Of a stretch of DNA of 32,000 bases, positions 2,418-20,094 are shown piece after piece (the stretch's first letter is position 1; the number at the start of each line of letters is the position of its first letter). The notes below the pieces were generated by a model that saw only the letters and a list, made by a program, of their open reading frames with translations, searched no databases and was not told the origin of the DNA. The translations under genes were made by a program, and so were the position numbers. Origin of the DNA: Vibrio vulnificus CMCP6 (GTDB taxonomy: Bacteria > Pseudomonadota > Gammaproteobacteria > Enterobacterales > Vibrionaceae); NCBI RefSeq assembly GCF_000039765.1, contig NC_004459.3, positions 90,001 to 122,000 of the forward strand, given 5' to 3'.

Positions 2418-2418
2418 A

Positions 2419-3042
2419 TCAGTTAAGGTTCAATCGAGGTGTGCTGATGTTAATCGGAGAATCCGCGGAGTGCGTCATTTCTCCTGCGCTGTGCAAATTC
2501 ATAGTGGCATCAGTGGATTGGCTCATTTGCCCTTTGCTATGGAAGGTCATCGTACCTTTGCTATGGAAGGTCATCGTACCTTCGCTATTGAAAGTCATAT
2601 CACCACTACTTTTTATCTCAACATTTTGTGTTGCAGTCAGCTTTGCGTTGCCTGCCGTGGTTAAGATCAAATCACCCTCGACGTGACCTGTCAGCTTGTG
2701 TTCTTCCATATCGTATTCAAGCCAGGTGCCATCAGGAAACTCGTGGTAATAGAGGTTCAGTTGCTCTTTGGGCTGGTCAAACTTGGTTTGGTTTAGGCTG
2801 GCAACAATCACGCCCCCTTGTGCCCCAAACGGTTTTAGCACCACAACTTGCTCGCCCACTTGCAGGGGCTTAAAACTGCGCACCTCGGCAGCGTGGCTAA
2901 CGTTCATGGGAATCCAGCCGCTCACGCGGTTTTCATCAAACTGAACTTTGTAGCGCAGCGGCTTAGCTTGCACTTCGATGATGGTGCCAAACTGGATCAT
3001 TTCACTGAGAAGGCGAACAAGTTGCGAAGGCGTATGACTCAT
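2419..3042 (-). CDS. Baseplate central spike protein V (P2 gpV-like)
   Basis: 207 aa. The N-terminal OB-fold-like region (GTIIEVQAKPLRYKVQFDENRVSGWIP...) is typical of gpV/gp45. The C-terminus has octapeptide beta-helix repeats (SEGTMTFH SKGTMTFH SKGQMSQS). Confidence 0.85.
   Translation of the reverse strand: MSHTPSQLVRLLSEMIQFGTIIEVQAKPLRYKVQFDENRVSGWIPMNVSHAAEVRSFKPLQVGEQVVVLKPFGAQGGVIVASLNQTKFDQPKEQLNLYYHEFPDGTWLEYDMEEHKLTGHVEGDLILTTAGNAKLTATQNVEIKSSGDMTFNSEGTMTFHSKGTMTFHSKGQMSQSTDATMNLHSAGEMTHSADSPINISTPRLNLN
2533..2604. repeat. Three tandem 24-bp repeats inside the gpV coding sequence
   Basis: tttgctatggaaggtcatcgtacc occurs at 2533-2556 and identically at 2557-2580. A degenerate third copy, ttcgctattgaaagtcatatcacc, follows at 2581-2604. 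The repeats encode the octapeptide spike repeats. Confidence 0.9.
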
Positions 3043-3575
3043 TAGAAATTCTCGTCCACAGAGAAATAATCGTCTTCATGGCCAAAGCCGACATCCGGCG
3101 ATTGCGAAACGGATATCTCCTCTGGCAACTCACTTGGCCCAACAGGTAGCCAATCTATTTCGCCGGCTAAATCAAATGGGCCTGCTCGACATTCAGAGAT
3201 AAACCAACCATCCGGTGCCTCCTGTTGCTGAGACGTGGAAACAGACAGGATCGAGATATTGCCGAACGCACTTGAGTTGCAGAAGTTTCGCCACTCTTGC
3301 AAGAACTCGAGTTCAGCTCTCTCAACATCAAGCCCTTTGGCTTTGGAGCCACAGTAAATACGGCCGATCACCAGCAGCTTGATATAGGTGTTGTAGGCGT
3401 CATTGGGGATCTCACCTATATAGATCACAGTGAGCTCTCCGCGCTCCAAGTCGCTATTTTTGTAGGCGCTTCTGTCTTGCCAGTTGCGGCTTACGTTGCG
3501 CTCTGTATAACGAGTGCTAAACCCCGCCACCATTGCATCAAGAATCTGATTTAGGTTGCGTTCTTCTTGAGCCAT
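3042..3575 (-). CDS. Hypothetical virion protein (candidate tail-completion or baseplate-proximal protein)
   Basis: 177 aa from ATG 3575, preceded by AAGGAG with a 6-nt spacer. The track start at 3578 is a GTG. The stop overlaps the gpV start by 1 nt. The function is inferred from position only. Confidence 0.6.
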   Translation of the reverse strand: MAQEERNLNQILDAMVAGFSTRYTERNVSRNWQDRSAYKNSDLERGELTVIYIGEIPNDAYNTYIKLLVIGRIYCGSKAKGLDVERAELEFLQEWRNFCNSSAFGNISILSVSTSQQQEAPDGWFISECRAGPFDLAGEIDWLPVGPSELPEEISVSQSPDVGFGHEDDYFSVDENF

Positions 3576-4075
3576 CACACACTCCTTAATCCTGCTCGAC
3601 TCAATGCCATCTGCACCGAGGCATTGAGAATGTCAGACACTTTGTCTTGAGTTTGCTCTGCCGCTCTGTCGTAAAAATCGTCCGCTGGCGTACCATTTCT
3701 GGCAATTGAGCGAGCAATCATAAATGCCAGGTCTCGTTGGTCGGTATTGGGTGTTTTGGGTTGTATCCGTTTGACCTTCACCCAATCCAAGACAGATTGA
3801 ATCGGCGGCATACCTTGGGGGCCAGTTTCCTGCACAACCCAATTGTTGTAGTTCAGTGAGCTGGTGATCATACGACTAAGCTCCCCAACAACATTCGAAC
3901 GTATTGAGTTGACTAATAGACTTTCCGCTTTAGGCGCCTCTTCTCTCGCCGCTCGAGAGACGAACGAACCAGCATAGCTAACGGCAGATTTTAAATGCTG
4001 GTTCAAAACATTAGGAGCCGTTCGAAATGCTTCATCCAGCGCAGAGGTATTGATCTCGATATGAAGCTCACGCAT
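3575..4075 (-). CDS. HK97 gp10-like neck or tail-completion protein (tentative)
   Basis: 166 aa. The segment ...AAREEAPKAESLLVNSIRS...NYNNWVVQETG... resembles the HK97-gp10-like pattern (AP.dTG.L..SI ... Ya..vE.G). Position is between the lysis genes and the baseplate. Confidence 0.5.
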   Translation of the reverse strand: MRELHIEINTSALDEAFRTAPNVLNQHLKSAVSYAGSFVSRAAREEAPKAESLLVNSIRSNVVGELSRMITSSLNYNNWVVQETGPQGMPPIQSVLDWVKVKRIQPKTPNTDQRDLAFMIARSIARNGTPADDFYDRAAEQTQDKVSDILNASVQMALSRAGLRSV

Positions 4076-4673
4076 GGTTTACCTGCTCGAGAAACTGATT
4101 CATCAATTGCTGATGTACCGCCGCGGGCGTGCCGTTCTTGGCTTCTCCACCAATGCTGTTACGAACCGAAACAGTTTTATTTAGCTGATGAACCATGATG
4201 TACTTAACCGCCTCGGCTAGGCAGCGAAGCAGCAACAGCGGCTCATCTTGCGCATCAATCGAGAAGCTATCGCCACTTATCTTACGTGCTGCGTAATAGG
4301 TGTAAGAGAAATCTCGACCACAGCTCATCACAACCGAATCGGCGGGGAAATGAGAAAGCTGCAACCACTTTTTATCCTGGTCATCTTCAACCACCGTTAG
4401 CCTTGGCAAGCTGCGCGGGTAACCGCTTTCCCAAGGGTTTTTCGCACGCTGGCTTTGCCCGTATAAAACGGTCCGCACCTGCATGAGATCGGCAGGTGCG
4501 AGATAGAGCATTTGGCCTGTCATAAGCGAAAAGGTACCTAGCTTCTTTTGCGGCCGATAGCGGCTGTAATCGGCTAAGGCAACCTCGATCACCTGTTGTT
4601 CAACACCACTGATGAGCTCCGCACTATCCATCAACGCATTTTTGAGCCTTTCAGTCAGGGTAGAAATCTGCAT
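4068..4673 (-). CDS. Hypothetical virion protein (candidate head-completion or adaptor protein)
   Basis: 201-aa ORF. GGGGA lies 5 nt upstream of the ATG. The 3' end overlaps the next gene by 8 nt. No family recognised. Confidence 0.6.
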   Translation of the reverse strand: MQISTLTERLKNALMDSAELISGVEQQVIEVALADYSRYRPQKKLGTFSLMTGQMLYLAPADLMQVRTVLYGQSQRAKNPWESGYPRSLPRLTVVEDDQDKKWLQLSHFPADSVVMSCGRDFSYTYYAARKISGDSFSIDAQDEPLLLLRCLAEAVKYIMVHQLNKTVSVRNSIGGEAKNGTPAAVHQQLMNQFLEQVNHA

Positions 4674-4681
4674 ACCATCCC

Positions 4682-4978
4682 CTATTTACGGACGAAGTAA
4701 GCGAATGCGGAAGAGACAACCCCAAGTAACAACCAGATAAGATCACGGTTGTACTTGGTTTTTTCATTGGTTCCGCTTTGGCTTTGCTCTACTGGCCGCA
4801 GTCGGCTTTCCACATCGTCAACCGTGCGCTCTAAGCGCATGAATTGACTTTCAAGATTCGAATGCTTGGTTTGCAATTCAACCATTTGCCTCATTAACTG
4901 CGTTTGCTGTTTCATGTAGTCGCGCATTTCAATTCGAAAAGAGTGAAACTCGCCTTGAGAGACAGGATTACCGGACAT
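4682..4978 (-). CDS. Small coiled-coil protein with a C-terminal transmembrane helix (XhlA-like lysis-associated protein, tentative)
   Basis: ATG 4978 is preceded by GGAGG. The 98-aa product has a heptad-like central region (QTQLMRQMVELQTKHSNLESQFMRLERTVDDVESRL). It ends in the hydrophobic segment LIWLLLGVVSSAFAYFV. It lies immediately downstream of the holin. Confidence 0.45.
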   Translation of the reverse strand: MSGNPVSQGEFHSFRIEMRDYMKQQTQLMRQMVELQTKHSNLESQFMRLERTVDDVESRLRPVEQSQSGTNEKTKYNRDLIWLLLGVVSSAFAYFVRK

Positions 4979-5564
4979 TGCCACCTCCACGGAGTGCTGA
5001 AGCAATGCCACCAAGTACGCCCGCTGGCGCAATACCAGCGGAAACTTGTTTGTCTTGTGAGCGCTTATGAATGTTCAAACCAAGAACCGTTAGTGCGACA
5101 GAAAACAAAGCCGTCAGCTTTGCCGCTCCGGTAAAAGCTTGTTCGGTAAATTCAGGATGAAACAACATCAGCCCTGCAATACCAAAAAATAACGATGTCC
5201 AAGCTAAACAAACCGCATAACCAAACGTCGGACGCCAACGGCGAACATACGCATCATCGCTGTTCAGCTCAGCAACCATCAACTTATGCTGCTCAGTGAT
5301 CACCAGTTTGCGTTCTGCGCTTTCTAGTTCCGCTTGCTGATAGGAAAGCTCACGCAGCCGAACACGCTCTTCACTTTCCATCTGTTTGATTTTGACCAAA
5401 GCATCTGGATTACGAACCAGTTCTGCTTCGATTGCTTCCGCCGAGTTCTCCACCCCTAACGTTTCGGCAATCAGGGCGCCAACGGAAGCACCTGCAGGCC
5501 CACCGACCAAACTGCCGACAAGTGGTGCTGCGCCCCCAATCAGAGACTTCACTTTGTCCCACAT
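4968..5564 (-). CDS. Holin, 3-TM 'GTA-type' family (tentative)
   Basis: 198 aa. It has a Gly/Ala-rich N-terminus and a central coiled coil. This is followed by ...RRWRPTFGYAVCLAWTSLFFGIAGLMLF... and two further hydrophobic segments, which fits the GTA_holin_3TM pattern (WRP..G). A strong AAGGAG precedes the ATG with a 6-nt spacer. Confidence 0.6.
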   Translation of the reverse strand: MWDKVKSLIGGAAPLVGSLVGGPAGASVGALIAETLGVENSAEAIEAELVRNPDALVKIKQMESEERVRLRELSYQQAELESAERKLVITEQHKLMVAELNSDDAYVRRWRPTFGYAVCLAWTSLFFGIAGLMLFHPEFTEQAFTGAAKLTALFSVALTVLGLNIHKRSQDKQVSAGIAPAGVLGGIASALRGGGNVR

Positions 5565-5576
5565 AGTTGCTCCTTA

Positions 5577-5606
5577 GTTGGTACCGTCATCAATGACGGT
5601 ACCAAC
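5577..5606. promoter_or_regulatory. Perfect 14-bp-arm palindrome immediately upstream of the holin RBS
   Basis: The sequence is gttggtaccgtcat-ca-atgacggtaccaac. On the minus strand it is followed directly by TAAGGAG and the holin ATG, with no U-run. It could be an RNA hairpin or a protein-binding site. Confidence 0.5.
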
Positions 5607-5613
5607 CATTAAC

Positions 5614-6204
5614 TTATTGTTCAGAGGTGGCTTTTAACTTAGATAGCGCGTCTTGAATCAGGGCTAGCTTCACTTGGTCATCACCAACCGCCAGCAGCTC
5701 AATTTGCAGCTCACTCTCATCTTTGCCTTCGAGCGTTTTGGCATAAGAGGCAGGGTCAAAATCGCGTTCAGCAGTTCGTACCGCCAGTTCATCTTCGATC
5801 TCTTTGAGTAGCCCTTTACGCTTCTGGTCGAGGGTTTCCAGTTCTGATAAACGCTTTAACTCGTCGTCGTTTAACGAGGAAAAGAAAGGCTTGATATCGT
5901 CGATTTTGAGCGCCAGTAGCTGCTCAAATACCTGATCTTGAAACTTACCCGCATTGGCTTTGTTAGGGTTTTCAAAATGAATAATGGGTAGGCGTGCGGC
6001 TTGCATTGGCTGCACAACCGTTTCACCGAAGTACTTGGGCGTAATGCCAAAGTTAATGAACAGCACCATTAGCTTACGATTGATTTCAGCGGATGCCGGT
6101 ACAAAACGGGCATCCACTTCGCGAGTTTCACCGGGCTGAACTGAGCGGCCACCGATATTCACGGTTTGTTCTGAATGGTTGGTAAATGCAGTAGTGATAG
6201 ACAT
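5614..6204 (-). CDS. Hypothetical protein downstream of the capsid gene (candidate head decoration or completion protein)
   Basis: 196-aa ORF with AGGTGA upstream of the ATG. The C-terminal half is charged and coiled-coil-like. No family recognised. Confidence 0.6.
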   Translation of the reverse strand: MSITTAFTNHSEQTVNIGGRSVQPGETREVDARFVPASAEINRKLMVLFINFGITPKYFGETVVQPMQAARLPIIHFENPNKANAGKFQDQVFEQLLALKIDDIKPFFSSLNDDELKRLSELETLDQKRKGLLKEIEDELAVRTAERDFDPASYAKTLEGKDESELQIELLAVGDDQVKLALIQDALSKLKATSEQ

Positions 6205-6231
6205 GATGGGTCACCTAAACCTTTGAGTAAG

Positions 6232-6267
6232 AAAAAAGCCCCGTTGCCTTACAAGCAGTAACGGGGC
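6232..6267 (-). terminator. Intrinsic terminator or attenuator after the capsid gene
   Basis: On the minus strand the stem is GCCCCGTT...AACGGGGC (6260-6267 paired with 6238-6245). It is followed by TTTTTT (the plus-strand A-run at 6232-6237). Confidence 0.7.
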
Positions 6268-6278
6268 AATGGCTCGTA

Positions 6279-8855
6279 TTAGCGGCCTGACTGTGAATAG
6301 AAGAGTACGCTGGTAAAGCGGTTACGAATTGGCTTCGGACAGTGAATCGCGTTGTACTCTTCACCGTAAGCTTCTTTACCACCTTTGAGCTGACCATTAG
6401 CATCACGCGCTTCTTGCATTTCACTGAGCGTGAATGGCTTAACGACCGTGTAAGTGAGCGCACCTTTCTGACCCATGATGATCCGCTCATCCCCCAAGTG
6501 CGTGGCTGGCGCATTGGTTGAAAACGAAGGCAGTGCTTTCACCATCTCTAAGTCACCTTGTGCGGTGGTATCAGAGCCGTTGCGCTTCATCGAGGCGACA
6601 AACTGCTCCGCATTGGTACAGGTGTCATTGAGGGTGTTCGACATCAGCAAGAAATCTGGCGTAACAAAGCGATCATCTTTCATGATGGCTTTACGGCGAC
6701 CAATGGCTTGAAGCAGCTTGTTGTAGTGCTTCTCTGGCGCCATACCATCTGGAATATCGCTATCTACTTTGACGATGTTGGTTGCAAAACTGTAGCCAAC
6801 GCTCGCTGCATTCGCGGTGACTGGTTTCAGATCGCCCGATTCATCAACCAGGACAAACTTACCTAGGTTGTAAGAAGTCACGATGTAGTATGTGCCTGGG
6901 GCTTGAGTGCCTGAGCCGTCATAAGGCTGAATGGTCGTGCCATCAATTTGTAGTGTGATTGGGTTTTCAGCGTTACCCACAGTGTTTCCTTGCAGATCAT
7001 ACTGCTGATGCGGCGCCACAATCGGGAACTGAGCGGTTTTAAACTCCGCTTTGTCTTGCAGTTGGTTGGCAATGTCTTCACCTTGGATAGGCGCCGCAAG
7101 GTATGAGTCCGCTACGCGCTGCATGGTGTTCACAATGCGGCGAGCGACCAGTTCTTTGATGATGCGGCTCGCTGTCGCGACGTTGCGCCCCCAAGCATCC
7201 CAGTTAATGGCAGACGACTTGGAAAAATGCATTAACTCGTTCGAGACTTCAAACGCCACTTTCATTGGCAAGACATACGCCAAATCCATGCGCTGCGAGT
7301 TCTTCACTTTCGGAATGGTACCGTGCTCAAACACAATGCCATCGCCCATGATCGCCGACACATCGCGGTTTTCATAAGGGATATTGGTTGTCGCTGATGC
7401 GCTGAAGTCGGTCAGCGTTTGTACCAGTTGCAACACATTAAGGTCAGAAAGCGCTTCGCGAATCACTTCACGCTGCACAGAAACAGGCAGTTCGCTGTCT
7501 GACACGATGTTGGCGCTGCCTTGGCCTGTTAACGCCAAGCGTTCAGCATGAATCTTGTGATGATGTAAGCGGTCGAACTCGGCCAGCACTTGGCGAGCAA
7601 ACACGGGCAGTTCTTTCTCTTCCGTTAAACGCAACTGACCAAGTGCATAGGTATTGGTGTTGCGAAGCGCCGAGTGAATTTGCGCTTGCAGCTGCAAACT
7701 TTCACGCTGCTGGTCGGGTGTTTGAGTGAGAGAGCCAGTGACACTGCCAAAGCCTAAGCCATTCAACTGAATGGAGACCATTTTCTCGTTGCCATGCTTA
7801 ATTTGGTTTTCTGCCAGTTTGGTGATCTGCTCATCCGACATATCAACGCTAATAAGCGCAGACGCTTCTTTCAGCTCTTTCTTCACTTCATCACTGAGCC
7901 CTTCCGCTTTGTCGATCGCTTCCGTGAAGATTTTCACTTTCGCAGTGAGCTTTTGCTGTTTCTCCGCCTGTTCTTGCGCGGTTTTGCTGGCTTGCTCACC
8001 AAGAATACGCAGCACGTCCGCTTCACTGAGCGAACCGCCCGTTAAATTGATCACCGGCACCGCAGGGTTGCCGGATTCTGAAAGCTGCATGGCCACGCCT
8101 TCAAACTGTTCACTCAATTTGGTGGCTTGGGTCTCATCACTGATGCCGCTTAGTGAATCAGTCAGCAGTTTGACCATGGCTGTGTGTTGTTTGGCAGAGA
8201 GTTTCATGCCTTTCAGTTTGCTTTCAAACTGGGCGATCAGTTGTTTCCACATGGTTTGACGTTCCTCAGAGAATTTTTGAGCAAGAGACTCGGAAAGATA
8301 AGTGGGGCATTCATGAAGGCAGGCTTCACTGAGTTCGATCTGGTCTAGGTTTTTGATACATGGACGCGTGACCAAACCTGCACCTAGCAGGGTTGGGCCA
8401 AACTCAGAATATTGGCCATTGGTTCCGGCCTCGTTGCTGACATAGTTGAGATGTATTTCGGCGGATAAGTACTTAAAGCCTTCTTTGGTGACTTTATTAA
8501 TGCCGAGTTCGAACCACTCCACCTCTGCACGTAAACGTCCACGGTCGGTAAACAGGCGTTTCACCACCGCCCCTGCGCCATCTTCTGGCTTATGCGCGAT
8601 GTCGATAAAGATCTCCTGACCATAAACCCCATCGTTAAAGTTTTTGATCATGGAATCGAACATGCTCTGGGTCAGTTCAAATTCGCCGTAACGTGGATCA
8701 TTAAATCTGCCGGTTCGGGTAATCGTGACAACACTGCGTTTTGCGGCTCCGGTATCCACCTTGACCGCATCAGATAAGAGATGAATCACCCCTTGTGTTG
8801 TGGTTGCACCCAGTACCAAAACGCCAGAGGCTTTTAACAATTGTCTTTGATTCAT
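6279..8855 (-). CDS. Fused prohead protease (Mu gpI-like), coiled-coil scaffold and HK97-fold major capsid protein
   Basis: 858 aa. The N-terminal ~180 aa resemble the Mu-like prophage protein I / protease family (TRTGRFNDPRYGEFELT...FIDIAHKPEDGA...LSAEI). Residues ~200-400 are low-complexity and coiled-coil (Q/E/K/L-rich). The C-terminal ~450 aa look like an HK97-family capsid protein (NIPYENRDVSAIMGDGIVFEHGTIPK...MDLAYVLPMKVAFEVSNELMHFS). Confidence 0.75.
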   Translation of the reverse strand: MNQRQLLKASGVLVLGATTTQGVIHLLSDAVKVDTGAAKRSVVTITRTGRFNDPRYGEFELTQSMFDSMIKNFNDGVYGQEIFIDIAHKPEDGAGAVVKRLFTDRGRLRAEVEWFELGINKVTKEGFKYLSAEIHLNYVSNEAGTNGQYSEFGPTLLGAGLVTRPCIKNLDQIELSEACLHECPTYLSESLAQKFSEERQTMWKQLIAQFESKLKGMKLSAKQHTAMVKLLTDSLSGISDETQATKLSEQFEGVAMQLSESGNPAVPVINLTGGSLSEADVLRILGEQASKTAQEQAEKQQKLTAKVKIFTEAIDKAEGLSDEVKKELKEASALISVDMSDEQITKLAENQIKHGNEKMVSIQLNGLGFGSVTGSLTQTPDQQRESLQLQAQIHSALRNTNTYALGQLRLTEEKELPVFARQVLAEFDRLHHHKIHAERLALTGQGSANIVSDSELPVSVQREVIREALSDLNVLQLVQTLTDFSASATTNIPYENRDVSAIMGDGIVFEHGTIPKVKNSQRMDLAYVLPMKVAFEVSNELMHFSKSSAINWDAWGRNVATASRIIKELVARRIVNTMQRVADSYLAAPIQGEDIANQLQDKAEFKTAQFPIVAPHQQYDLQGNTVGNAENPITLQIDGTTIQPYDGSGTQAPGTYYIVTSYNLGKFVLVDESGDLKPVTANAASVGYSFATNIVKVDSDIPDGMAPEKHYNKLLQAIGRRKAIMKDDRFVTPDFLLMSNTLNDTCTNAEQFVASMKRNGSDTTAQGDLEMVKALPSFSTNAPATHLGDERIIMGQKGALTYTVVKPFTLSEMQEARDANGQLKGGKEAYGEEYNAIHCPKPIRNRFTSVLFYSQSGR

Positions 8856-8872
8856 TTCCTGTCCTTAAAACG

Positions 8873-8899
8873 AAAAAAGCCCCTGAAAATGTCAGGGGC
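8873..8899 (-). terminator. Intrinsic terminator closing the accessory island, ~20 nt upstream of the capsid RBS
   Basis: The stem is gcccctga (8879-8886) paired with tcaggggc (8892-8899), with a 5-nt loop. On the minus strand a run of six U follows (plus-strand A-run at 8873-8878). Confidence 0.75.
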
Positions 8900-8964
8900 T
8901 CGGTCGCCAATTAAGGGCAGTTTGAGTGATGAAAGTAACCGTTGGGAGGGTTAGATAATAGCTA

Positions 8965-9402
8965 TCATGACCTTACAGCTAAATCATCGGCTCGGAAAAA
9001 AGGATATTTGAATGGAGATGGATGTTTTAAGCAAACTTCTAGAATCACATGCTCGGTCACCGCTTTGGAAACATCAATCCTTGTATGTAAAATCCCCGCA
9101 GATTCATCTCCTGGGAACTCAGGGTCTTTGCCATCCGAGTACATTTTATAACCAAAATGGTAATGATACTGACGCTTATTCTCTGCATCTTCTAAAAATG
9201 TATTTTGAAAAGCAGTTCGTTTATGTTCAGGCGTTTTCATTTTCCAGCTTGGTTTGTATTTGCCTCTAAGTTCATCAGGGGGAGTCAGCCCATTGAAATT
9301 AATCGGTTGAACAAAATGTTTGTAAACACTGTCAATCACATCACGTTCCAGCTTTTTCATTTCATCAAGAACGGTTCTCGTAAAGTAAGCTTTATGTTCC
9401 AT
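8965..9402 (-). CDS. Unrecognised 145-aa protein downstream of the Panacea-domain gene; candidate toxin or effector
   Basis: The ORF begins 5 nt after the upstream gene's stop, which suggests an operon and possible translational coupling. The region is AT-rich. It contains RQYHYH (residues 77-82), which fits the generic Rx4H pattern. I see a weak, unverified resemblance to YafO-type toxins. Confidence 0.55.
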   Translation of the reverse strand: MEHKAYFTRTVLDEMKKLERDVIDSVYKHFVQPINFNGLTPPDELRGKYKPSWKMKTPEHKRTAFQNTFLEDAENKRQYHYHFGYKMYSDGKDPEFPGDESAGILHTRIDVSKAVTEHVILEVCLKHPSPFKYPFFRADDLAVRS

Positions 9403-9407
9403 TTTTA

Positions 9408-9983
9408 CTATACGCTTTGTATCCAGTTATAGAAATCATCAGCATTTTGAATGGTCTGCGGAACTTCAATGACTTCAGATTCCATAGCTGCTTCCATTCT
9501 GTCCATGTGAATTGAAAGCAATCTGTCATGCTGCTCATTCAGCTCTTGAGCAAAGAAATCAATAAGCTCTTGATGAGTTATCGTTTGATAATCAACTTTC
9601 TTACTTTCTTTACTAACATGAGCTAACCAAGGAGCCTCTCTATGGCTTTTCTCTCTAAGTTGCCAAGCTCCCATGTTACCTAATGTCATTAAAACAAAGT
9701 CTATGGTTTGAACAGCCCTGTCTGAAAGTTCACAAATAGCATTACCAACCGATGCTGTAATTGTTCCTTTTTTGTACGTTTGATATTCTTCGTACAATGA
9801 ACGAACTACTGGGCCATGATCCCACGCCTTTAGATCTTCATCAAAAAGTGGCTCTTCGTATTGAGCAAGATGATACCCCTGGCAATAGTAAGCGAGCTTT
9901 TGTAGCTTTAAATTGCTTACTTGTATGCCATTTTCGCTTGCTCTTTGTAGCAATGCTTTTGCGAAGATATCAGCAGAGACCAT
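9408..9983 (-). CDS. Panacea (DUF4065, SocA/GepA-like) domain protein; putative antitoxin
   Basis: 191 aa. The N-terminus, IFAKALLQRASENGIQVSNLKLQKLAYYCQGYHLAQYEEPLFDEDLKAWDHGPVVRSLY, matches the DUF4065 signature as I remember it (T..KLqKLlYy.qg..l....plf.e.feAW.hGPV....Y). GGGAG precedes the ATG with a 7-nt spacer. Confidence 0.75.
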   Translation of the reverse strand: MVSADIFAKALLQRASENGIQVSNLKLQKLAYYCQGYHLAQYEEPLFDEDLKAWDHGPVVRSLYEEYQTYKKGTITASVGNAICELSDRAVQTIDFVLMTLGNMGAWQLREKSHREAPWLAHVSKESKKVDYQTITHQELIDFFAQELNEQHDRLLSIHMDRMEAAMESEVIEVPQTIQNADDFYNWIQSV

Positions 9984-10022
9984 TGGAAACTCCCATAAAA
10001 TTTGAGGCGGGATAGTACAAAA

Positions 10023-10047
10023 GATAGCAAATGTTTACAATGCTATC
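10023..10047. promoter_or_regulatory. Inverted repeat (candidate operator) upstream of the Panacea operon
   Basis: gatagca (10023-10029) and tgctatc (10041-10047) are perfect 7-bp arms with an 11-bp spacer. They lie in a ~25% GC segment 40-65 nt upstream of the gene start. Confidence 0.3.
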
Positions 10048-10116
10048 CTTATATATATTCACTTATTGCCATATAGATTACACTTTTACTTAACTTTTAC
10101 GTCAGCACCATGCTGC

Positions 10117-10149
10117 AAAAAACAAAAGGCCCCCGGAAACTCAGGAGCC
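10117..10149 (-). terminator. Intrinsic terminator after the RelE-like toxin gene
   Basis: The minus-strand RNA GGCUCCUG-AGUUUC-CGGGGGCC forms an 8-bp stem that includes two G.U pairs. It is followed by UUUUGUUUUUU. Confidence 0.65.
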
Positions 10150-10190
10150 TATCTGTAAGTTAAAAATCTTGTTTTGGTTCTAAGAGTAAG

Positions 10191-10520
10191 CTATCCGATA
10201 AGCTTTAAATCAGCCTTCCTGCTCTTTTTCATAGACTCGTAGTAATTCTCATGAGGCCCAACGTTTAAAAGATAGAGCTCCAGCTTATCTTCGACCCAAG
10301 AGTATCCAAGTAGCACCTCTTGTTTATCCATTTTGAACTTGTGTACCCATAAATGGGATAGATCCCCCTTTTTACGTGTACCAAGCTCTGGATTCTCTAT
10401 GATCTTATCAATCTCATCTTCCACCACTACACATTGAGCTTCAGATAACTTGCTCATTTGTTTAGAAAAACGATTTGTTTCGTAAACATCAATCTGCTTT
10501 TCGTTTTGTTCGTCGCTCAT
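10191..10520 (-). CDS. RelE/ParE-family type II toxin
   Basis: 109 aa. The pattern ...IDKIIENPELGTRKKGDLSHLWVHKFKMDKQEVLLGYSWVEDKLELYLLNVGPHENYY is typical of RelE/ParE-superfamily toxins. It overlaps the upstream antitoxin gene by 32 nt. Confidence 0.75.
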   Translation of the reverse strand: MSDEQNEKQIDVYETNRFSKQMSKLSEAQCVVVEDEIDKIIENPELGTRKKGDLSHLWVHKFKMDKQEVLLGYSWVEDKLELYLLNVGPHENYYESMKKSRKADLKLIG

Positions 10521-10725
10521 AGCGTTTTACCTTACCGAGTTTTACTTCCTCGGAAGCCAAAAGCGATTCTTGTACAAAGCTATAAGGTAAGTCTGGGTTA
10601 TCTGTCATTATTTTTCCGATTTTAGCCCAATACTCAATCTGCTTAGGCACAGAACGCATTTCTGCTTCCGCATGAACCTTGACGTCAGACACAAAATCAT
10701 CGTCTAGGCGAATACTTGTTGCCAT
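10489..10725 (-). CDS. ParD-like type II antitoxin
   Basis: 78 aa. MATSIRLDDDFVSDVKVHAEAEMRSVPKQIEYWAKIGKIMTDNPDLPY matches the ParD_like pattern (RS...QIE.WA.lG). A strong GAGGAG precedes the ATG with a 7-nt spacer. Confidence 0.7.
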   Translation of the reverse strand: MATSIRLDDDFVSDVKVHAEAEMRSVPKQIEYWAKIGKIMTDNPDLPYSFVQESLLASEEVKLGKVKRYERRTKRKAD

Positions 10726-11093
10726 AGCAATTCTCCTCTAGCTTTATCATTGCACTTAACGGGAAGCTTATTTGCTAAAATTAAGCGCACATCTATGACG
10801 CAAATTTGCTGCATCGCTTTATACAACCTAAAAACTTCATCAAGCTTAAATAATCGATTCCTCTTCAAAAGCAAATTGCTTTTAACCATGATCCGAATAA
10901 GACAAAGTAAATGACTGTATTTATTTAAAAAGTTTCTCTGTTTCTTTGTATTCTGATTAGACTCAATTGGCGTATCAACAACACAAGATATGCCAAGTAT
11001 CCGCTCAATGTTTTCTAGCTGCTGCTCAAAATCAATCCTTCTTTTGGCAAGCTCTTCAAAACCAAAGTCAATAATTCTCATCCTCGCAAACAT
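10704..11093 (-). CDS. Hypothetical AT-rich ORF (129 aa from ATG 11093; the track extends it to 11216)
   Basis: ATG 11093 is preceded by GGGAG with a 7-nt spacer. ATG 11216 has no Shine-Dalgarno sequence. The predicted product is helical and basic. No family recognised. The 3' end overlaps the ParD-like RBS and start. Confidence 0.4.
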   Translation of the reverse strand: MFARMRIIDFGFEELAKRRIDFEQQLENIERILGISCVVDTPIESNQNTKKQRNFLNKYSHLLCLIRIMVKSNLLLKRNRLFKLDEVFRLYKAMQQICVIDVRLILANKLPVKCNDKARGELLWQQVFA

Positions 11094-11253
11094 TAGCAAC
11101 TCCCAAGCGAACTTCGATGTTTCCGCACACCAATAATGCAACAATTTGTCGCACAAAGCAACATATGAAGTAATGAATAGAAAGATAGGGCTAACTGCCC
11201 TGTCACCAGCAAACATTCGGTGTTAGGAAGAAGACGAACTGCACATTATCCAA

Positions 11254-11280
11254 CATCAAAGATGAAAATGCACTTTGATG
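11254..11280. promoter_or_regulatory. Inverted repeat between the divergent unknown ORFs (candidate operator)
   Basis: catcaaag (11254-11261) and ctttgatg (11273-11280) are perfect 8-bp arms with an 11-bp spacer. They lie about 40 nt upstream of the plus-strand ORF start. Confidence 0.35.
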
Positions 11281-11321
11281 CTTATAGCATTGAATAAACC
11301 GAAAAATCGAGATAATGATGC

Positions 11322-11861
11322 ATGGATAGGGTTGATTTCACACTAGAGCAAAAACAGCAAATGCTTGTTGGTATTGATAGGTTTTTCAAGCGATACGGTA
11401 GCTACCCAATTGATGACCAAACCTATTCACTTATCGCTATGTGTCTTTGGGATAGCAAGGGATTTCAAGTTCCACCGCTCTACGATGATGCAGACATAAC
11501 TCTAAATAACGACTTTGAAAGTAAATATCGCCTTATTAAAGCCGTAACTATATTGTGCTCGGGTGGGAAAAAACCTCTCGGATACGGGATTCTTTTAAAC
11601 TTTTACTTCAATCTATTTCAAACAGTCATTTCAAGACTACAGCTACTCCATGAAGAGTTACCTGTAGCTATCAAACACGTTATCTCACCACTTTTCGTCG
11701 AAGATAAAGTACTTCGAGATTACGTATATCAAGACTTCGATGGATTAGGAAATGGACTGACTAAAGTAGGAAAAATATACATTCATCCACTTTGGTCCAC
11801 TTATATGTTTCGTGAAGAAGTAGTTTTCGAAGATGAGTTGCTTCATTATCCCAAAGCCTGA
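11322..11861 (+). CDS. Hypothetical 179-aa protein, the only plus-strand gene inside the late-gene block
   Basis: Long ORF in AT-rich DNA whose stop lies inside an intrinsic terminator hairpin. The Shine-Dalgarno sequence is weak. No family recognised. Confidence 0.55.
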   Translation: MDRVDFTLEQKQQMLVGIDRFFKRYGSYPIDDQTYSLIAMCLWDSKGFQVPPLYDDADITLNNDFESKYRLIKAVTILCSGGKKPLGYGILLNFYFNLFQTVISRLQLLHEELPVAIKHVISPLFVEDKVLRDYVYQDFDGLGNGLTKVGKIYIHPLWSTYMFREEVVFEDELLHYPKA

Positions 11862-11877
11862 ATCATCAGGCTTTTTT
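11855..11877 (+). terminator. Intrinsic terminator for the plus-strand ORF, shared with the convergent 62-aa ORF
   Basis: The stem is agcctga (11855-11861) paired with tcaggct (11866-11872), with loop atca, followed by tttttt. The stop codons of both convergent ORFs (11859-11861 on plus, 11866-11868 on minus) lie inside the hairpin. On the minus strand only CUUUGGG follows, so it is a weak terminator in that direction. Confidence 0.7.
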
Positions 11878-12054
11878 AACCACTGGCACTTTTACCCAAC
11901 GCTTGCAACGGCATAGTGCTTCCCCTTCGAGCAGCTTAACGCATCGAGAACGAATGATGCCTTCACTATCGCAGATGCGATGACCACATAGGCACATCAC
12001 TTCACTGACGCGCTGACCGTTATCCTGAGGCTGATGTTTTTTTAACGTATTCAT
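11866..12054 (-). CDS. Small Cys-rich protein (putative zinc ribbon), 62 aa
   Basis: AGGAGC precedes the ATG with a 6-nt spacer. There are seven Cys residues (CLCGHRIC...RC...CRC). I noted a Com-like small zinc-finger regulator as a possibility, but the Cys spacing is not the classic CxxC...CxxC. Confidence 0.45.
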   Translation of the reverse strand: MNTLKKHQPQDNGQRVSEVMCLCGHRICDSEGIIRSRCVKLLEGEALCRCKRWVKVPVVKKA

Positions 12055-12150
12055 TATTAGCTCCTAGCGTTGGCTGGTTATTTCCAGTCCTACTTTTAAC
12101 TGACGTATGTATTATAAAGCTTGCTACGTGGAAAACAGGGGGCAAGTTAT

Positions 12151-13239
12151 TCACAGGTTTGTAGTATCAATGCCTTTTCGTTTCAGCACTGGCTCTAGGT
12201 GCTTCCAAGGGGTCGCAATCATCCCTTGGGTTAAGTGGCCTTGTTGTAAAGCGGATACTTTCTTGTTGTGCCCTAGCACCGCTTTCTGTGTCGCCTGGCT
12301 TTGGCTTTTCAGCCAATCAATTCGTGTTGTTGCATCTGCTTTGTCTTCTTCCGTCACTTCATCAACAAACACCACTTGCTCATAACTCAAGGTGTTAGGA
12401 TGCGCTGGCCACGGGCTTTTACCTCGTGGGTATACGCCACGGCCAAGGCCATAAAGATTTGCCATGGCGTGCATATCGCAGATATCCCTTTTGGGATGGT
12501 TCGGGCTTAGCTTGAACTTAGTCCCCACTACAAACTCATCTTCAAAAGCAGAGTTCTGAAACGCCATGCCGTAGGCTCGGTTAATCTCCGTTCTCATCAC
12601 TCGCTTGATTTGGTGATACGGTGCACCTTGATCTTCCATGAGCACATCACTGACCTTTTTATTGATTCCAGAGCTGCTGGCCATAGTCATTTGCTGAGCA
12701 ATATGGGACGGAACAGGCTGCATGCGGCGCTGATAATCCTGCGCGGCTTCGGATGCTGACTGGCCGAGGATAACGGCGCGTTCCACCGCGTTGGTTAGCT
12801 CTTGTTTTGCGTTGCGATGAACCCGCCAAAGGCGGTCACTCAGTTGTAACCCATCTTTCTGCTGCATGGTTCGGGTTGCCAGAACGGCAGCATCAATCGA
12901 CTCAGAAACTTTTGCGGCAGGAATACTGCTGCTGAACGTGTTCCCACCGTTTTTGGCCGCTTCGACAATATACCCTTCCACCATGCTCGATTGCTTTTGG
13001 TTTACTTGGTTGAGAATCTCCTCTATCTGCCTAGTGAGGGTATGTAACTGGGAAAGTCGAACTTGACCTAATTCATCGGCCGCGTGGCTAATCAGAAACT
13101 GGATTTCGACCAGTGCCGCCTGATAGAGATCGGTGAGATCCTGCATGGCTTGCGCATCCAGCTCATTGGTAGCACGCTGCGCTGCCTGCATCGCTCTGCG
13201 GATAGTCGCTTTAACTTGTGTGCGTTGATTGACTGCCAT
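12151..13239 (-). CDS. Head morphogenesis protein (Mu gpF / SPP1 gp7 family)
   Basis: 362 aa. Position is directly after the portal gene. The pattern ...IKRVMRTEINRAYGMAFQNS...KFKLSPNHPKRDICDMHA is typical of the Phage_Mu_F family. Confidence 0.75.
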   Translation of the reverse strand: MAVNQRTQVKATIRRAMQAAQRATNELDAQAMQDLTDLYQAALVEIQFLISHAADELGQVRLSQLHTLTRQIEEILNQVNQKQSSMVEGYIVEAAKNGGNTFSSSIPAAKVSESIDAAVLATRTMQQKDGLQLSDRLWRVHRNAKQELTNAVERAVILGQSASEAAQDYQRRMQPVPSHIAQQMTMASSSGINKKVSDVLMEDQGAPYHQIKRVMRTEINRAYGMAFQNSAFEDEFVVGTKFKLSPNHPKRDICDMHAMANLYGLGRGVYPRGKSPWPAHPNTLSYEQVVFVDEVTEEDKADATTRIDWLKSQSQATQKAVLGHNKKVSALQQGHLTQGMIATPWKHLEPVLKRKGIDTTNL

Positions 13240-13244
13240 GAGTA

Positions 13245-14624
13245 TTACCCGTTGCTGATGGACGTTGCACTTTCACCTTTCGGCTGATTGTTTGGAGTGA
13301 TGCTGACTTTATGCGCCGGCTTATTGTCCTCGTCATCGATGTCGTGGTTTTCTGGGTATGGGTCTTTACTGTTTGCCTCATCCTCACGCATGGCTTCTGC
13401 ACGTTGAACATCGACGCCTGCAGCTTCCCAAGCCAATTTCCTCGGCATACCCAGCGCCTGATATTTAAGGGCCAAGTCTGCGCGTTGGTTTTTGCTGTCT
13501 GTCATTCGTTCAGCAAACTGGATCTGGAACTGGTACGAATCCGGATTGATGCCAGCTAACAGCAGTTGCAGTTTAAAACCATCTTCATAGGCATACGCCA
13601 GCGCATCTTGCAGGGCATCAATCTCTTCGTAGTAATCGCGTTTTAAATCTTCAAGAACGTCTCGAGCGAGATCGTCTACATAGCCAAACAATCCCTTAGG
13701 TGCAGGCGCTCCGGAAAAGAAGGCATCGATGAGCAATGTGATATCGGCAATCTGCTCTAGGTTGGCATCACCACCGATAGCCGTGACGCTCAGTTTGTTA
13801 CCGTAAAAGTCAGTGGCAATTTCTCCCGATTGTCCTTCCACTCGTTCACGGTATTCATCTAAAGCTTTGCTATCAGCCCCATCGAGCGAATGCGCTAGCT
13901 TTTGCGGTGCTCGAGTTCGCCGACGAATCACCAGATCCTCTTCTGTCATGATCAGCTTTTGCCAGATGGGCCTCGCGGCATCGAGATATGGGCGCCCCAT
14001 ACAACCCATATCATCAAAGTTATCTGGGTCTAATCGGCTTACGGTGAGCTGCCAGAGCGGAAAAGTACACAGCTCTTCGTAGGTCAGTGGGTCTACCTGA
14101 CGAAATGCTTGTTTGACGTCTTTGAAACGTCCGGTTCGGTCCACGATGGGAATAATCGTTTCGGTCGGCATACGTACCGAGCTCGTCACCTGACGCTGCT
14201 CGTTGACCACCCACTGCAGCGGTAAGTTGCCCTCTTTGGCCAAGCCTGCGGCATCACTCATCAGCTTCATGCGGTTGTTGAGCTGCAAGCGAAGCGTAAA
14301 CTGTTGCCAAAGTTTGCTGACACGGGTGCTTTCTTTGCCAATCCAATGCAGTTTCAAACCGCCTTTGGTGGCATCACGCGCAATGCGGCGATGAATCTTT
14401 TTCACCCGTGGATCAACCTTATCCATGTAACGCAGCATCACAATAGCGGCGCGTAGGTTCGGATCTATCTGCATTTGGTCGTAAAGGTATTGCACTGAAC
14501 GTTCAGGGTCTGCGATGTGGCCTTTCTCAGTCGTGACATGGCCATGCTGATTACCGGAGGTATTAGGCGCGGAAGGGAGAGGCTTGTTTCTCAATATGGC
14601 CCAAATTTGGGATAACTTGCTCAT
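13245..14624 (-). CDS. Portal protein
   Basis: 459 aa. It lies immediately downstream of the large terminase with an ATGA overlap. The C-terminus is acidic. The size and position are typical of a portal. The family was not identified by eye. Confidence 0.7.
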   Translation of the reverse strand: MSKLSQIWAILRNKPLPSAPNTSGNQHGHVTTEKGHIADPERSVQYLYDQMQIDPNLRAAIVMLRYMDKVDPRVKKIHRRIARDATKGGLKLHWIGKESTRVSKLWQQFTLRLQLNNRMKLMSDAAGLAKEGNLPLQWVVNEQRQVTSSVRMPTETIIPIVDRTGRFKDVKQAFRQVDPLTYEELCTFPLWQLTVSRLDPDNFDDMGCMGRPYLDAARPIWQKLIMTEEDLVIRRRTRAPQKLAHSLDGADSKALDEYRERVEGQSGEIATDFYGNKLSVTAIGGDANLEQIADITLLIDAFFSGAPAPKGLFGYVDDLARDVLEDLKRDYYEEIDALQDALAYAYEDGFKLQLLLAGINPDSYQFQIQFAERMTDSKNQRADLALKYQALGMPRKLAWEAAGVDVQRAEAMREDEANSKDPYPENHDIDDEDNKPAHKVSITPNNQPKGESATSISNG

Positions 14625-16249
14625 CGTAGGTTCCTTAACAAGTTGAATGCGCCTGGTGCGCCTAATAGTTGTTCTCGAGTTTTGTGGTTGATGGTGATGA
14701 TGCTCGGGACAGGTGCAGCCCCTTGGGTAACTAACGCCCAGTGGCTTGCCATGTGTGCATCAAATAGGTCATCGCCAATGGTTTTCTTCACCATTTGGTA
14801 GCTGCTGTAGCTGCCAGATTTAACTGGTGAGGGTTTTATGTTTTTTAACTGCCGTGGCAAGGCAACATAGTCTTCCAACTGTGGGTCTGATTCCCTGTCA
14901 TCGACATACGGCAACACCATTTGTCTGTTGTGGTATGCGCTGCGTAGTGATTGCGCCATTTGATGTTTGGCCATGCCTTCAAATCGTAGCGGCGAGAATG
15001 CCCACTCTGGCCAAGTGGATGCGGTGCTTTCGCCGCCGCCAATGGTTCTGCGGTCGATTTGCGTTAGCCCTTCAGCAAAAAGATCATCGTTAACCTGCGT
15101 GATAAGGCCAATTCCAAAGGCATCACCAATCGCGTAATCCGGCCGAAAGTAACGCCAGAACCCGACAAGGTCTTTGCGAATCACCCCTTCATCAGTTCCC
15201 GGGTGCCACGTTTTACAGAAGATCACGACAGACCAATTGCCCACCTGCTCTTCAATGACCAATGACGAACGCGAAGAGGCAAGGTTCTCACCGTGGCCTG
15301 TATGGTCATATCCCCAAGCGATAACACCACGCTTTTTGTACACCGCATAGGGATCAGGCTCGGCAGGTTCCAAACCAATTTTGGCGCCAACTTGAATGGC
15401 GTAACGAATGTACTTTTCCCAGATGAGGTTTTTCGCCGCCACGTTGATACACAGCAACTGACGAATGTATTCATCCTCAGGCAGCTGCTTACGCATGGAC
15501 ATAATGAACTCTTCATTCAAAATACCCAGCTCTATGCCGAGGTAACAATCAACGGTAGGTAAGCAGTGATACTCGCCAGAATCAATCAAGCCGCTTAACG
15601 TGTCGGCGCCTTTGAATACTCCGGTGATGCGAATTTGTGGTTTGTTTATCGCGGTTTTACTCGCGCCTAAACGACGACTTGAACCCATCATCAATAAGAA
15701 ACGGCCATAGAGACGATCGGCATCGAGGTCGTCCACTTCTTCCAATGACGCCCAAGTCAAATCGCCACCGTCGACGTTGGCCATGATGCCGTAAGCCCGT
15801 GCTTTGGAGCGGTTCGCAAACTCATAGTAGGTATCGGCCAACTGCTTGCGACCTGACTTGTAAGCGATGAAGCCACTCAAGATATCGGAACGACGAATGG
15901 CATCCAGGTGATAACCGAGGTTCACCAGTGACTGTGCTTCTCTGGGCGCGACGATACCGCCCTCTTGATCACCATTGATTGCGTTCCAGTTAAGAAAGTA
16001 CATCTCTTTTACGGCTGTTTTACCTGTCCGGCGGCAACTGAAATCAACCGTGTTCTGATGGATATCCATCTCTTCCATTTTGAGCAGCTGAACAGGGTCC
16101 AACTCGACATTGTGAACGTGTTTGTGCCACATGCCGTGGTTGTCTGCGTAACGCATGATCTCTTTTTGCGCTCGACTCTGAATTTCGACGCGCTCTTTCG
16201 CGCTAATACGGTCAGCCACGATCGACTTCTCCATCGATGTAGTCGCCAT
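14621..16249 (-). CDS. Terminase large subunit
   Basis: Walker A-like CRRTGKT and Walker B-like LTWASLEEVDD are present, followed by a C-terminal nuclease-type region. The start is ambiguous: the track gives 16321, and internal ATGs at 16249 and 16234 reduce the overlap with the upstream gene. Confidence 0.85.
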   Translation of the reverse strand: MATTSMEKSIVADRISAKERVEIQSRAQKEIMRYADNHGMWHKHVHNVELDPVQLLKMEEMDIHQNTVDFSCRRTGKTAVKEMYFLNWNAINGDQEGGIVAPREAQSLVNLGYHLDAIRRSDILSGFIAYKSGRKQLADTYYEFANRSKARAYGIMANVDGGDLTWASLEEVDDLDADRLYGRFLLMMGSSRRLGASKTAINKPQIRITGVFKGADTLSGLIDSGEYHCLPTVDCYLGIELGILNEEFIMSMRKQLPEDEYIRQLLCINVAAKNLIWEKYIRYAIQVGAKIGLEPAEPDPYAVYKKRGVIAWGYDHTGHGENLASSRSSLVIEEQVGNWSVVIFCKTWHPGTDEGVIRKDLVGFWRYFRPDYAIGDAFGIGLITQVNDDLFAEGLTQIDRRTIGGGESTASTWPEWAFSPLRFEGMAKHQMAQSLRSAYHNRQMVLPYVDDRESDPQLEDYVALPRQLKNIKPSPVKSGSYSSYQMVKKTIGDDLFDAHMASHWALVTQGAAPVPSIITINHKTREQLLGAPGAFNLLRNLR

Positions 16250-18169: not shown

Positions 18170-18412
18170 TTAGTCGAAGATAACTGATATCTCAGCTTCA
18201 TTGATAAACAGCCAGGTATGGCCATTGGCGGTGACATCAAGCCCCGCATAAGGATTGAACTGAATTCTCGCGCCTACTGCTACTTCCTTTACCTGATGGC
18301 CAACAGCGACTACCTCACCAGTGTTAGCTGGCTTATCTGGCGTCCACAACAAGCTTCTGGGGCGTTCATCTCGCTGAATTACTACCCAATCATGCAGTGG
18401 TCTTAATTTCAT
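18170..18412 (-). CDS. GroES/Cpn10-like co-chaperonin homologue (80 aa)
   Basis: MKLRPLHDWVVIQRDE...GEVVAVG...VGARIQFNPYAG...EAEISVIF aligns by eye with E. coli GroES (MNIRPLHDRVIVKRKE...GEVLAVG...VGDIVIFNDGYG...ESDILAIV). The mobile-loop region is shortened. Its start overlaps the integrase stop (ATGA). Confidence 0.7.
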   Translation of the reverse strand: MKLRPLHDWVVIQRDERPRSLLWTPDKPANTGEVVAVGHQVKEVAVGARIQFNPYAGLDVTANGHTWLFINEAEISVIFD

Positions 18413-19762: not shown

Positions 19763-20094
19763 GGTAATTTTCTTACAAAGCCAGAGACAATAAGGGATGA
19801 GACAAAGAGCCCCATATATTCACAGGTTTTGACTAAGTATGCGTGACATGAGAATTGACAGCCCACACCCAAGCCGCCATCTTATTTTTCAAGCCACAGC
19901 CCCTATCTGCGCGCCCATATCTCTCTAGGGGGTGCGGGGGAAACAACAATAAAGGAATGAAGCGCCTGTCTAATGATGGGCGTTCTTTATATAGGGGTAG
20001 CGTTTATCAATAGATACCGAGACCTCATAAAGAACGCCCTCTTAGGGGTTTTCCAGCAAGGTAAGAATGCACACATCAACCTAAGGAGATGACT

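Follow-up and report, generated by a model that had tools for sequence, protein, structure and literature searches.

The window analysed here, 32,000 nucleotides of Vibrio vulnificus CMCP6 (NC_004459.3, positions 90,001 to 122,000), contains one arm of a prophage. Between its MuF-like head-morphogenesis gene and its head gene lies a slot holding small open reading frames (ORFs) of low G+C content, and the same slot was found with other cargo in related loci of Vibrio and Photobacterium. We read it as an accessory-gene ('moron') hotspot of an undescribed Vibrio/Photobacterium temperate phage family, whose cassettes include two toxin-antitoxin (TA) pairs, and give this reading a probability of about 0.75. 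The features of the slot and of its two flanks are listed in the direction of late transcription (positions are those of the window; aa, amino acids).

12151-13239, - strand: MuF-like head-morphogenesis gene (phrog_1657 head morphogenesis, E 4e-34), the upstream flank in transcription order
11866-12054, - strand: orf62, right after MuF, encoding a 62-aa Cys-rich protein (CxC...C...C...CxC)
11853-11874: left border hairpin AAAGCCTGA-N4-TCAGGCTTT, a perfect 9-bp inverted repeat between the convergent orf62 and orf179
11322-11861, + strand: orf179, an orphan of the cargo that occupies the first slot and runs antisense to the late genes
11217-11321: intergenic region separating orf179 from the divergently oriented orf170/ParDE side, with the inverted repeat CATCAAAG-N11-CTTTGATG at 11254-11280
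10704-11216, - strand: orf170, doubtful ORF upstream of ParDE
10489-10725, - strand: ParD-like antitoxin (PF11903, E 1.4e-16; phrog_16013, E 4e-41)
10191-10520, - strand: ParE-like toxin (PF15781, E 1.7e-31)
8954-10186, - strand: PanA-PanT cassette, a 1233-bp insertion that lies between the end of parE and the right border
10127-10150, - strand: terminator-like hairpin (stem of 9 pairs, of which 6 are G-C) with the T run TTTGTTTTTT behind it, 41 nt past the parE stop
9984-10126, - strand: putative PanAT promoter/operator, with TTGTAA (10040-10035), 17 nt and TACTAT (10017-10012), as judged from the sequence
9408-9983, - strand: PanA, predicted antitoxin of 191 aa with a Panacea (DUF4065/SocA-like) domain (PF13274 SocA_Panacea, E 7.6e-21, residues 27-119)
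8965-9402, - strand: tox145, putative PanT toxin of 145 aa, of an uncharacterised His-rich family
8856-8953, - strand: right border and head-gene leader, about 95 nt conserved in all relatives compared, including Photobacterium
8901-8877, - strand: right border hairpin GAGCCCCTGA-N5-TCAGGGGCTT with T run, terminator-like, 22 nt before the head-gene start
6279-8855, - strand: gene of the 858-aa head protein (phrog_328 head maturation protease, E 3e-6, N-terminus only), the downstream flank

Variable cargo between conserved head genes

A preliminary description of this DNA had proposed an island of low G+C content between the MuF-like gene and the head gene, and both the sliding G+C and the G+C at third codon positions (GC3) bear this out. 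Counted per 500 nt, the G+C is 0.37-0.40 over 9001-12000, compared with about 0.47-0.52 on either side. For the variable region (8954-11851) it is 0.381, some 6.8 standard deviations below the mean of 0.483 (standard deviation 0.015, minimum 0.452) of 467 equally long windows taken from the rest of the 32 kb. The GC3 of the cargo genes is 0.32-0.44, against 0.53-0.55 for the portal, MuF and head genes.

The relatives used for comparison were 24 loci obtained by a search with the MuF protein (Vibrio and Photobacterium genomes and viral contigs), of which 19 had both flanks. All 19 contained a low-G+C interval at the same place, 1232-5365 bp long and with a G+C of 0.36-0.44, against 0.45-0.58 in the flanks of these relatives. 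The cargo of the 19 loci was grouped into 50 ORF clusters in about 14 architectures, and most clusters were present in one or two loci; in locus L012 the slot measures merely 1232 bp and holds none of the cargo genes of the window. When 20 representative cargo clusters were scanned against family libraries about half gave no match. Those recognised include matches to models of known or candidate defence genes, namely PD-Lambda-1, found in the slot of four related loci (E 1e-175), putAbiC/AbiP-like proteins (E 2e-28 and 8e-16), PDC-S31 (DUF2971; E 8e-33) and PDC-S42 (E 7e-36), and there are also a ParE of another kind, regulators resembling Rha and Arc, and many proteins without match. The gene in the first position after orf62 typically runs antisense to the late genes; it is PD-Lambda-1, PDC-S31, the PDC-S42 operon or orf179 depending on the locus.

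The comparison with relatives that have the same flanks, proposed in order to see whether the interval is a variable hotspot with differing cargo, gives support to such a hotspot. As in hotspots of the P2/P4 type, the position is fixed in the 19 loci, the cargo differs and known anti-phage models occur among it (in the relatives only). The slot is a variable accessory hotspot, a statement that we make with high confidence and that is supported because the cargo of the relatives includes PD-Lambda-1, AbiC/AbiP-like proteins, PDC-S31 and PDC-S42.

One of the cargo proteins of the relatives (cluster C7, 335 aa) matched nothing in Pfam or PADLOC and adjoins the head gene in the Photobacterium loci L007/L021 (14189-15753) and L008/L022 (15235-16239). 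In L007/L021 it is accompanied by a 185-aa membrane protein and the two are a candidate two-gene cargo module.

The flanks are well conserved, with identities of 67-96% for the MuF-like protein across the 24 related loci and of 76-99% for the head protein in the relatives. Substitutions in MuF (counted, as in all genes below, at first/second/third codon positions) were 11/6/52. The flanking genes had been described as MuF-like and protease-capsid; the first assignment stands and the protease one has weak support at the N-terminus, while the capsid part is assumed from the position of the gene only, and the head protein is presumed to be a protease/scaffold-capsid fusion.

It could also be argued that the small ORFs belong to the core as accessory genes of head assembly, their low G+C being a local quirk of composition, given that they are placed between head genes and that orf62 is conserved in all relatives. 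The latter gene does have the marks of a core gene of the phage family and not of cargo, as its homologue is found directly after MuF in 24 of the 24 related loci, its G+C is 0.476 and its substitutions fall mainly on the third position (1/0/9 and 2/0/7). However, besides orf62 no ORF is conserved family-wide, the 1232-bp slot of L012 has none of them, the PanAT cassette is present in some and absent from others of a set of nearly identical phages, and the ORFs match TA families, so that this explanation is hardly credible. The seven small ORFs that had been counted in the island are all present and orf179 is, as stated, alone on the + strand, but they are not conserved as a core set across the family, orf62 is core instead of cargo and orf170 is doubtful as a gene. 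The island had also been given a length of about 3.2 kb. Because orf62 is in all 24 loci, the variable part is 2.9 kb.

The orf62 product gave no match in Pfam, PHROG or PDB. By its size and Cys pattern it might be a Com-like zinc-finger regulator, for which no profile gave support. A diverged second copy of orf62 was observed inside the hotspot in L001, L007, L008, L015, L021, L022 and L024, preceded in several relatives by a partner of 66-149 aa (clusters C2-C0). This extra copy might provide an anchor for recombination within the slot.

Borders of the slot

Homology to the relatives stops at window positions 11852 on the left and 8953 on the right, according to the blastn breakpoints. The left border hairpin, AAAAAGCCTGA-loop-TCAGGCTTT, includes the stop codon of orf62 and is followed by a T run on the + strand, and it is likely to be a terminator for both orf179 and orf62. 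Its stem core GCCTGA/TCAGGC is kept in 12 of the 13 loci displayed, with loops of differing length and sequence; in L007, from Photobacterium, this hairpin is missing. The right border consists, in this order, of the blocks CCCTCC (8950-8945), ACTGCC (8921-8916) and TGGCGACC, the hairpin, the T run and a Shine-Dalgarno sequence. The CCCTCC block is anti-Shine-Dalgarno-like. In the hairpin the stem is invariant and the loop variable among the 16 Vibrio and Photobacterium loci compared (12 aligned).

Three intrinsic terminators had been proposed for the island, in agreement with the two strong terminator-like sites on the - strand (10150-10127 and 8901-8877) and the perfect 9-bp hairpin at 11853-11874. 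That the island splits one operon is not obvious, as the slot is framed by two conserved hairpins and looks instead like a transcription-unit boundary. We infer that it separates the last part of one late transcription unit from the leader that opens the next, and that the hairpins insulate the head gene from transcription of the cargo.

Another possibility is that GCCTGA...TCAGGC and GCCCCTGA...TCAGGGGC are recombination sites and not terminators, cargo being exchanged site-specifically at the border hairpins in the manner of integron cassettes. Integron cassettes are abundant in Vibrio and those of ParDE type are typical integron cargo there. Both borders also share conserved stems, variable loops and a common CCTGA/TCAGG core, and the breakpoints fall exactly at hairpin or gene ends. 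We nevertheless hold this to be very improbable: the two hairpins are followed by T runs and stand where terminators are expected, internal cassette junctions have no such hairpin (those of PanAT share 7 bp only), and the long conserved flanks permit ordinary homologous recombination. Moreover the sole integrase found in the prophage part is of the general phage type, although no search aimed at an integron integrase was made.

Toxin-antitoxin cassettes and orphan ORFs

The PanAT cassette is missing in L011 and L013, whose sequence over the rest of the island is 97% identical to that of the window, as seen from the blastn breakpoints and the junction alignment. The 7-bp sequence GATAGCT is found at both cassette junctions, and the full island including the cassette is present in other V. 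vulnificus strains. The hairpin at 10127-10150 lies inside the 1233-bp insertion, at its upstream end. In the putative promoter the arms of an inverted repeat (10020-10029 and 10041-10050; 90% complementary) surround the -35 hexamer, and a GGGAG is placed ahead of PanA at 9994-9990.

The Panacea domain of PanA scored 75.6 bits with PF13274, against a Pfam cut-off of 25.7, and in NCBIfam PanA matched only NF047745 SocA, below the cut-off of that model. Substitutions in PanA (3/0/15) and in tox145 (1/1/6), which starts 5 nt downstream, indicate purifying selection on both genes. The tox145 family is small, with 11 clusters in 5.8 billion proteins and 34 representatives in a profile search of 1.84 billion, and nine tox145 relatives compared with NCBIfam gave nothing. 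In seven of eight contexts, from Shewanella, Aeromonas, Vibrio and metagenome contigs, a Panacea gene is directly upstream of the tox145 homologue, which begins 0-5 nt after it or overlaps it by up to 23 nt. These pairs adjoin integrases, a BstA-like gene or a CBASS-like operon. The most distant relative (38% identity; L039 4602-5441, L040 965-1804) follows instead a 125-aa protein without Panacea domain, plus a 257-aa protein. The 125-aa protein is, from its position, a possible alternative antitoxin for the family, and the change of partner would by analogy be the partner swapping typical of Panacea networks (PMC8832971).

PanA and tox145 are probably a true TA pair. The two recognisable TA-type pairs of the preliminary description are both real as gene pairs, but the partner of the Panacea protein was not recognised by any profile library.

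Thirteen residues are invariant in the 34 members of the tox145 family (L45, G47, K50, P51, H80, Y81, H82, G84, Y88, S101, H106, H127 and P130), including the four histidines H80, H82, H106 and H127, and the family motifs are GKxKPS, HYHxG, SxxIxH and HPxPF. The AlphaFold2 model (predicted local distance difference test score, pLDDT, 81.5; predicted template modelling score, pTM, 0.78) is composed of a strand, two helices, an inserted helix and three strands, and its best fold matches in the PDB were YoeB/ParE 6n90 (probability 0.97, E 0.02), RelE 2khe and YoeB 7v5y. The protein is thus modelled with a RelE/YoeB-like fold. Membership of the superfamily is not established, as sequence comparison (Pfam, NCBIfam, PHROG, PDB profile search and hhalign) did not place tox145 with the RelE/ParE/YoeB profiles. 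That it is a translation-linked RNase is a tentative proposal derived from the model.

The parD and parE genes overlap by 32 nt, and the Pfam scores of both products are above the cut-offs. Compared with L011, the substitutions in parE are 1/1/13. The pair is present in the hotspot of eight related loci (six distinct ones without duplicates), adjoins the head gene in five and is the most recurrent cargo of the slot. In the PADLOC scan ParD also hit a cyclase model (E 0.011), which was dismissed, as was one sub-threshold match of an Rfam scan of the island, to ctRNA, situated on the terminator.

The coding block that ParDE relatives have in common begins 1 nt before the ParD ATG. Just upstream of ParD some of them have tandem repeats of differing short units, namely CAAACAGA, CTAAACA, ACACTGAATTAA and one of about 20 nt that is rich in A and T, at L004 ~12480-12586, L014 ~11190-11270, L024 ~14100-14200 and L008 ~11620-11750. 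The island of the window itself yielded no tandem repeats of relevance.

In the window this place is taken by orf170, which is considered doubtful because its substitutions are spread evenly over the codon positions (3/3/3, 5/2/1 and 6/5/4 in three sets of near relatives), its homologues form a single cluster restricted to V. vulnificus, and ParDE relatives have tandem repeats there. It gave no family match in the profile libraries (Pfam, PADLOC, PHROG, NCBIfam). An internal ATG at 11093 is preceded by a GGGAG Shine-Dalgarno sequence. Compared with L033 5001-5405, 27 gapped alignment columns differ between V. vulnificus strains, and a 134-aa gene is still called in L033; the frame stays open despite the non-coding-looking pattern of substitutions. 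The ORF may be an orphan limited to V. vulnificus or a non-coding ParDE leader, and perhaps is no gene at all.

orf179 is a real gene, though an orphan. It has only three clusters among 5.8 billion proteins, and in the same slot of relatives the frame is open, with a 57% identical homologue in L032 and a 64% identical tblastn match in L016. Its substitutions are 2/1/4, 3/0/5 and 5/0/4. No family match was obtained in the same four profile libraries, the profile search against PDB sequences returned nothing or noise, and the AlphaFold2 model, built from four sequences, was unusable (pLDDT 38). The inverted repeat at 11254-11280, in the divergent region upstream of orf179, may act as a promoter or operator element. 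The unrecognised ORFs had been singled out as the best candidates for something new. This stands for orf179, to which the unrecognised toxin should be added, but not for orf62, which is core, nor for the doubtful orf170.

Possible role, known systems and prophage surroundings

The hotspot could work as follows. Cargo would be exchanged most likely through recombination in the shared flanks, the cassettes would be transcribed on their own in the lysogen, and the hairpins would keep this transcription out of the head gene. PanA would bind and neutralise tox145, which, with its predicted RelE/YoeB-type fold and four invariant histidines, would most likely cleave RNA during translation. When the supply of antitoxin fails, for example because an infecting phage shuts off the host or because the prophage is lost, growth would be stopped by the ParE and PanT toxins, and this could result in abortive-infection-type protection, in stabilisation of the prophage, or in both.

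Several results weigh against the hotspot reading or parts of it. In the seven ORFs of the window PADLOC found nothing meaningful, and the link of the TA families to phage defence in this prophage is one of association. The PanAT promoter scores under the scan threshold, and the region has 3 promoter-like sites where shuffled sequence has 8.9. tox145 had no match in Pfam, NCBIfam, PADLOC or PDB sequences, hhalign of its family with the ParE-like family gave a probability of 1.5%, that is no similarity, and all its Foldseek E-values are above 0.001, with a TM-score of 0.38 by query and 0.58 by target. There is no covariation support for the RNA structure of the hairpins, because their stems never vary. 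Finally, a terminator-like hairpin 22 nt ahead of the head gene raises the question of how late transcripts get there. Late expression of the head gene could depend on an antiterminator, a late promoter within the leader or a translational control device.

Whether the island protects the lysogen from other phages is, by association, a little less than an even bet. Stabilisation of the prophage by addiction is an equally simple reading and is compatible with defence. A stricter version would see in the cassettes purely selfish addiction modules, kept since their loss kills the cell, with no protection of the lysogen. The cargo of the window is in fact two TA pairs plus orphans with no PADLOC match among them, ParDE is the cargo that recurs most in the slot, and the tox145/PanA pair is also found at the ends of other integrative elements beside integrases, which fits the stabilisation of mobile DNA. 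Nevertheless, the slot of the relatives holds matches to PD-Lambda-1, Abi-type and candidate PDC defence models, tox145/PanA pairs are located beside a CBASS-like operon and near a BstA-like gene, and addiction and defence are not mutually exclusive. We find this stricter version rather unlikely.

A more ambitious proposal within the hotspot reading can be formulated, in which orf179 would be a new single-gene defence, tox145 a PanA-controlled abortive-infection nuclease, and the border hairpins with CCCTCC an insulation and expression device. The position and antisense orientation of orf179 are those of PD-Lambda-1 or the candidate PDC-S31 in relatives. Taken as a whole this is speculative and we would not expect all of it to hold. 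If true, the border device would allow the cargo to be expressed in lysogens without disturbing the expression of the head gene, and the slot would be a rich reserve of new anti-phage genes still to be mined.

The hotspots of P2/P4 elements occupy a fixed site between conserved genes and have diverse cargo, with known defence genes among unknown ones, and a lower G+C (PMC9122126). The slot described here is alike in its fixed site, in the diverse cargo of related elements and in a G+C below that of the core. It differs in that the phage family has not been isolated, in its place within the head-gene block, from MuF/orf62 to the head gene and with two hairpin borders, and in the cargo of this prophage, which is made of TA modules and not of recognised defence systems. 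Morons within late operons have been described as well, namely HK97 gp15 and JBD26 Tab, the latter sited between terminase genes (PMC10884400). Here too extra genes stand amid virion genes, with terminators and probably also promoters of their own, and would be expressed from the prophage to the benefit of the lysogen. Unlike those single inserted genes, however, this slot is a multi-cassette one with turnover, and is known here from sequence.

PanA-PanT systems were reported by Kurata et al. 2022 (PMC8832971) and Ernits et al. 2023 (PMC10440598). Panacea antitoxins pair with many unrelated toxins, including clusters that are similar by HHpred to RelE/YoeB/ParE-type toxins (PMC8832971). The pair in the window agrees with them in having the Panacea/DUF4065 antitoxin first, a 5-nt gap, an occurrence as a pair across genera and carriage on prophages, and also in the lack of any CDD or Pfam domain in tox145, a trait of most PanT clusters. 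The tox145 family has a motif set of its own; in the partial tables of the 88 published PanT clusters no accession matched, and a match to any of these clusters is not established.

The beta-alpha-alpha followed by a three-stranded sheet, as modelled for tox145, resembles the topology of the RelE/YoeB/YafQ ribosome-dependent mRNA endonucleases. In YoeB and YafQ the catalytic residues are on the sheet strands and at the C-terminus, where the model also places the invariant histidines of tox145. In contrast to these enzymes of about 85-95 aa, tox145 has 145, with an inserted helix at 64-75, a low-confidence loop at 86-99 and no detectable sequence similarity. In the ParD/ParE pair, assigned to the type II TA systems (PF11903, PF15781) in which ParE would poison gyrase and be neutralised by ParD, nothing unusual was seen: the antitoxin comes first, the genes overlap and both domains are above cut-off. 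Only its upstream region varies among relatives, with tandem repeats in some and orf170 in the window.

The hotspot concept, the late-operon morons and the ParDE and PanAT families were therefore already known. What is new is the phage family with its exact slot and hairpin borders, the uncharacterised toxin family (its placement among the 88 clusters not being established) and the orphan orf179. No concept is changed by these results, which add an instance and a short candidate list. Prophage hotspots are productive ground for finding new bacterial immune systems, and about 50 cargo clusters came from just 19 loci. The exact borders can be used as search anchors in this widespread and undescribed family of Vibrio/Photobacterium temperate phages, and the Panacea-linked tox145 family is amenable to toxicity, RNase and phage-defence tests in the human pathogen V. 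vulnificus.

Beyond the slot, the following features of the window help to place the prophage.

13245-14624: portal, part of the terminase-portal-MuF-orf62 gene block
18409-19455: integrase matching general phage-integrase families, which marks the prophage end
20089-20658, opposite strand: GH108/PG_binding_3 endolysin-like gene near the prophage end

From about 20.7-20.9 kb on the genes are chromosomal, and include a two-component system, a nucleoside transporter, LysR, an SLT_2 transglycosylase, MinC and RNase D. Because no tRNA gene is present in the 32-kb window, the attachment site of the prophage is not a tRNA. In the searchable literature no earlier description of the hotspot or of the prophage was found. 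Three V. vulnificus CMCP6 proteins, AAO08648.1, AAO08647.1 and AAO08651.1, correspond respectively to PanA, tox145 and orf179, identical or nearly so, PanA being identical to the first.

A megablast search of the prophage DNA (window 6000-15000) against 50,697 phage records gave no match. At the protein level, with the head gene as query, the sole match in these records was a head protein of Microcystis phage yong1 with 40% identity, annotated as 'Mu-like prophage I protein'. In this phage (vB_MaeS-yong1, MT855965.1, locus 2000-5950) a stretch of about 4 kb separates a MuF-like gene from the head gene and holds assorted genes, a DDE transposase among them, and with this arrangement the MuF-head slot may be old. 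Microcystis as the host of yong1 is an odd attribution for a relative of a Vibrio prophage.

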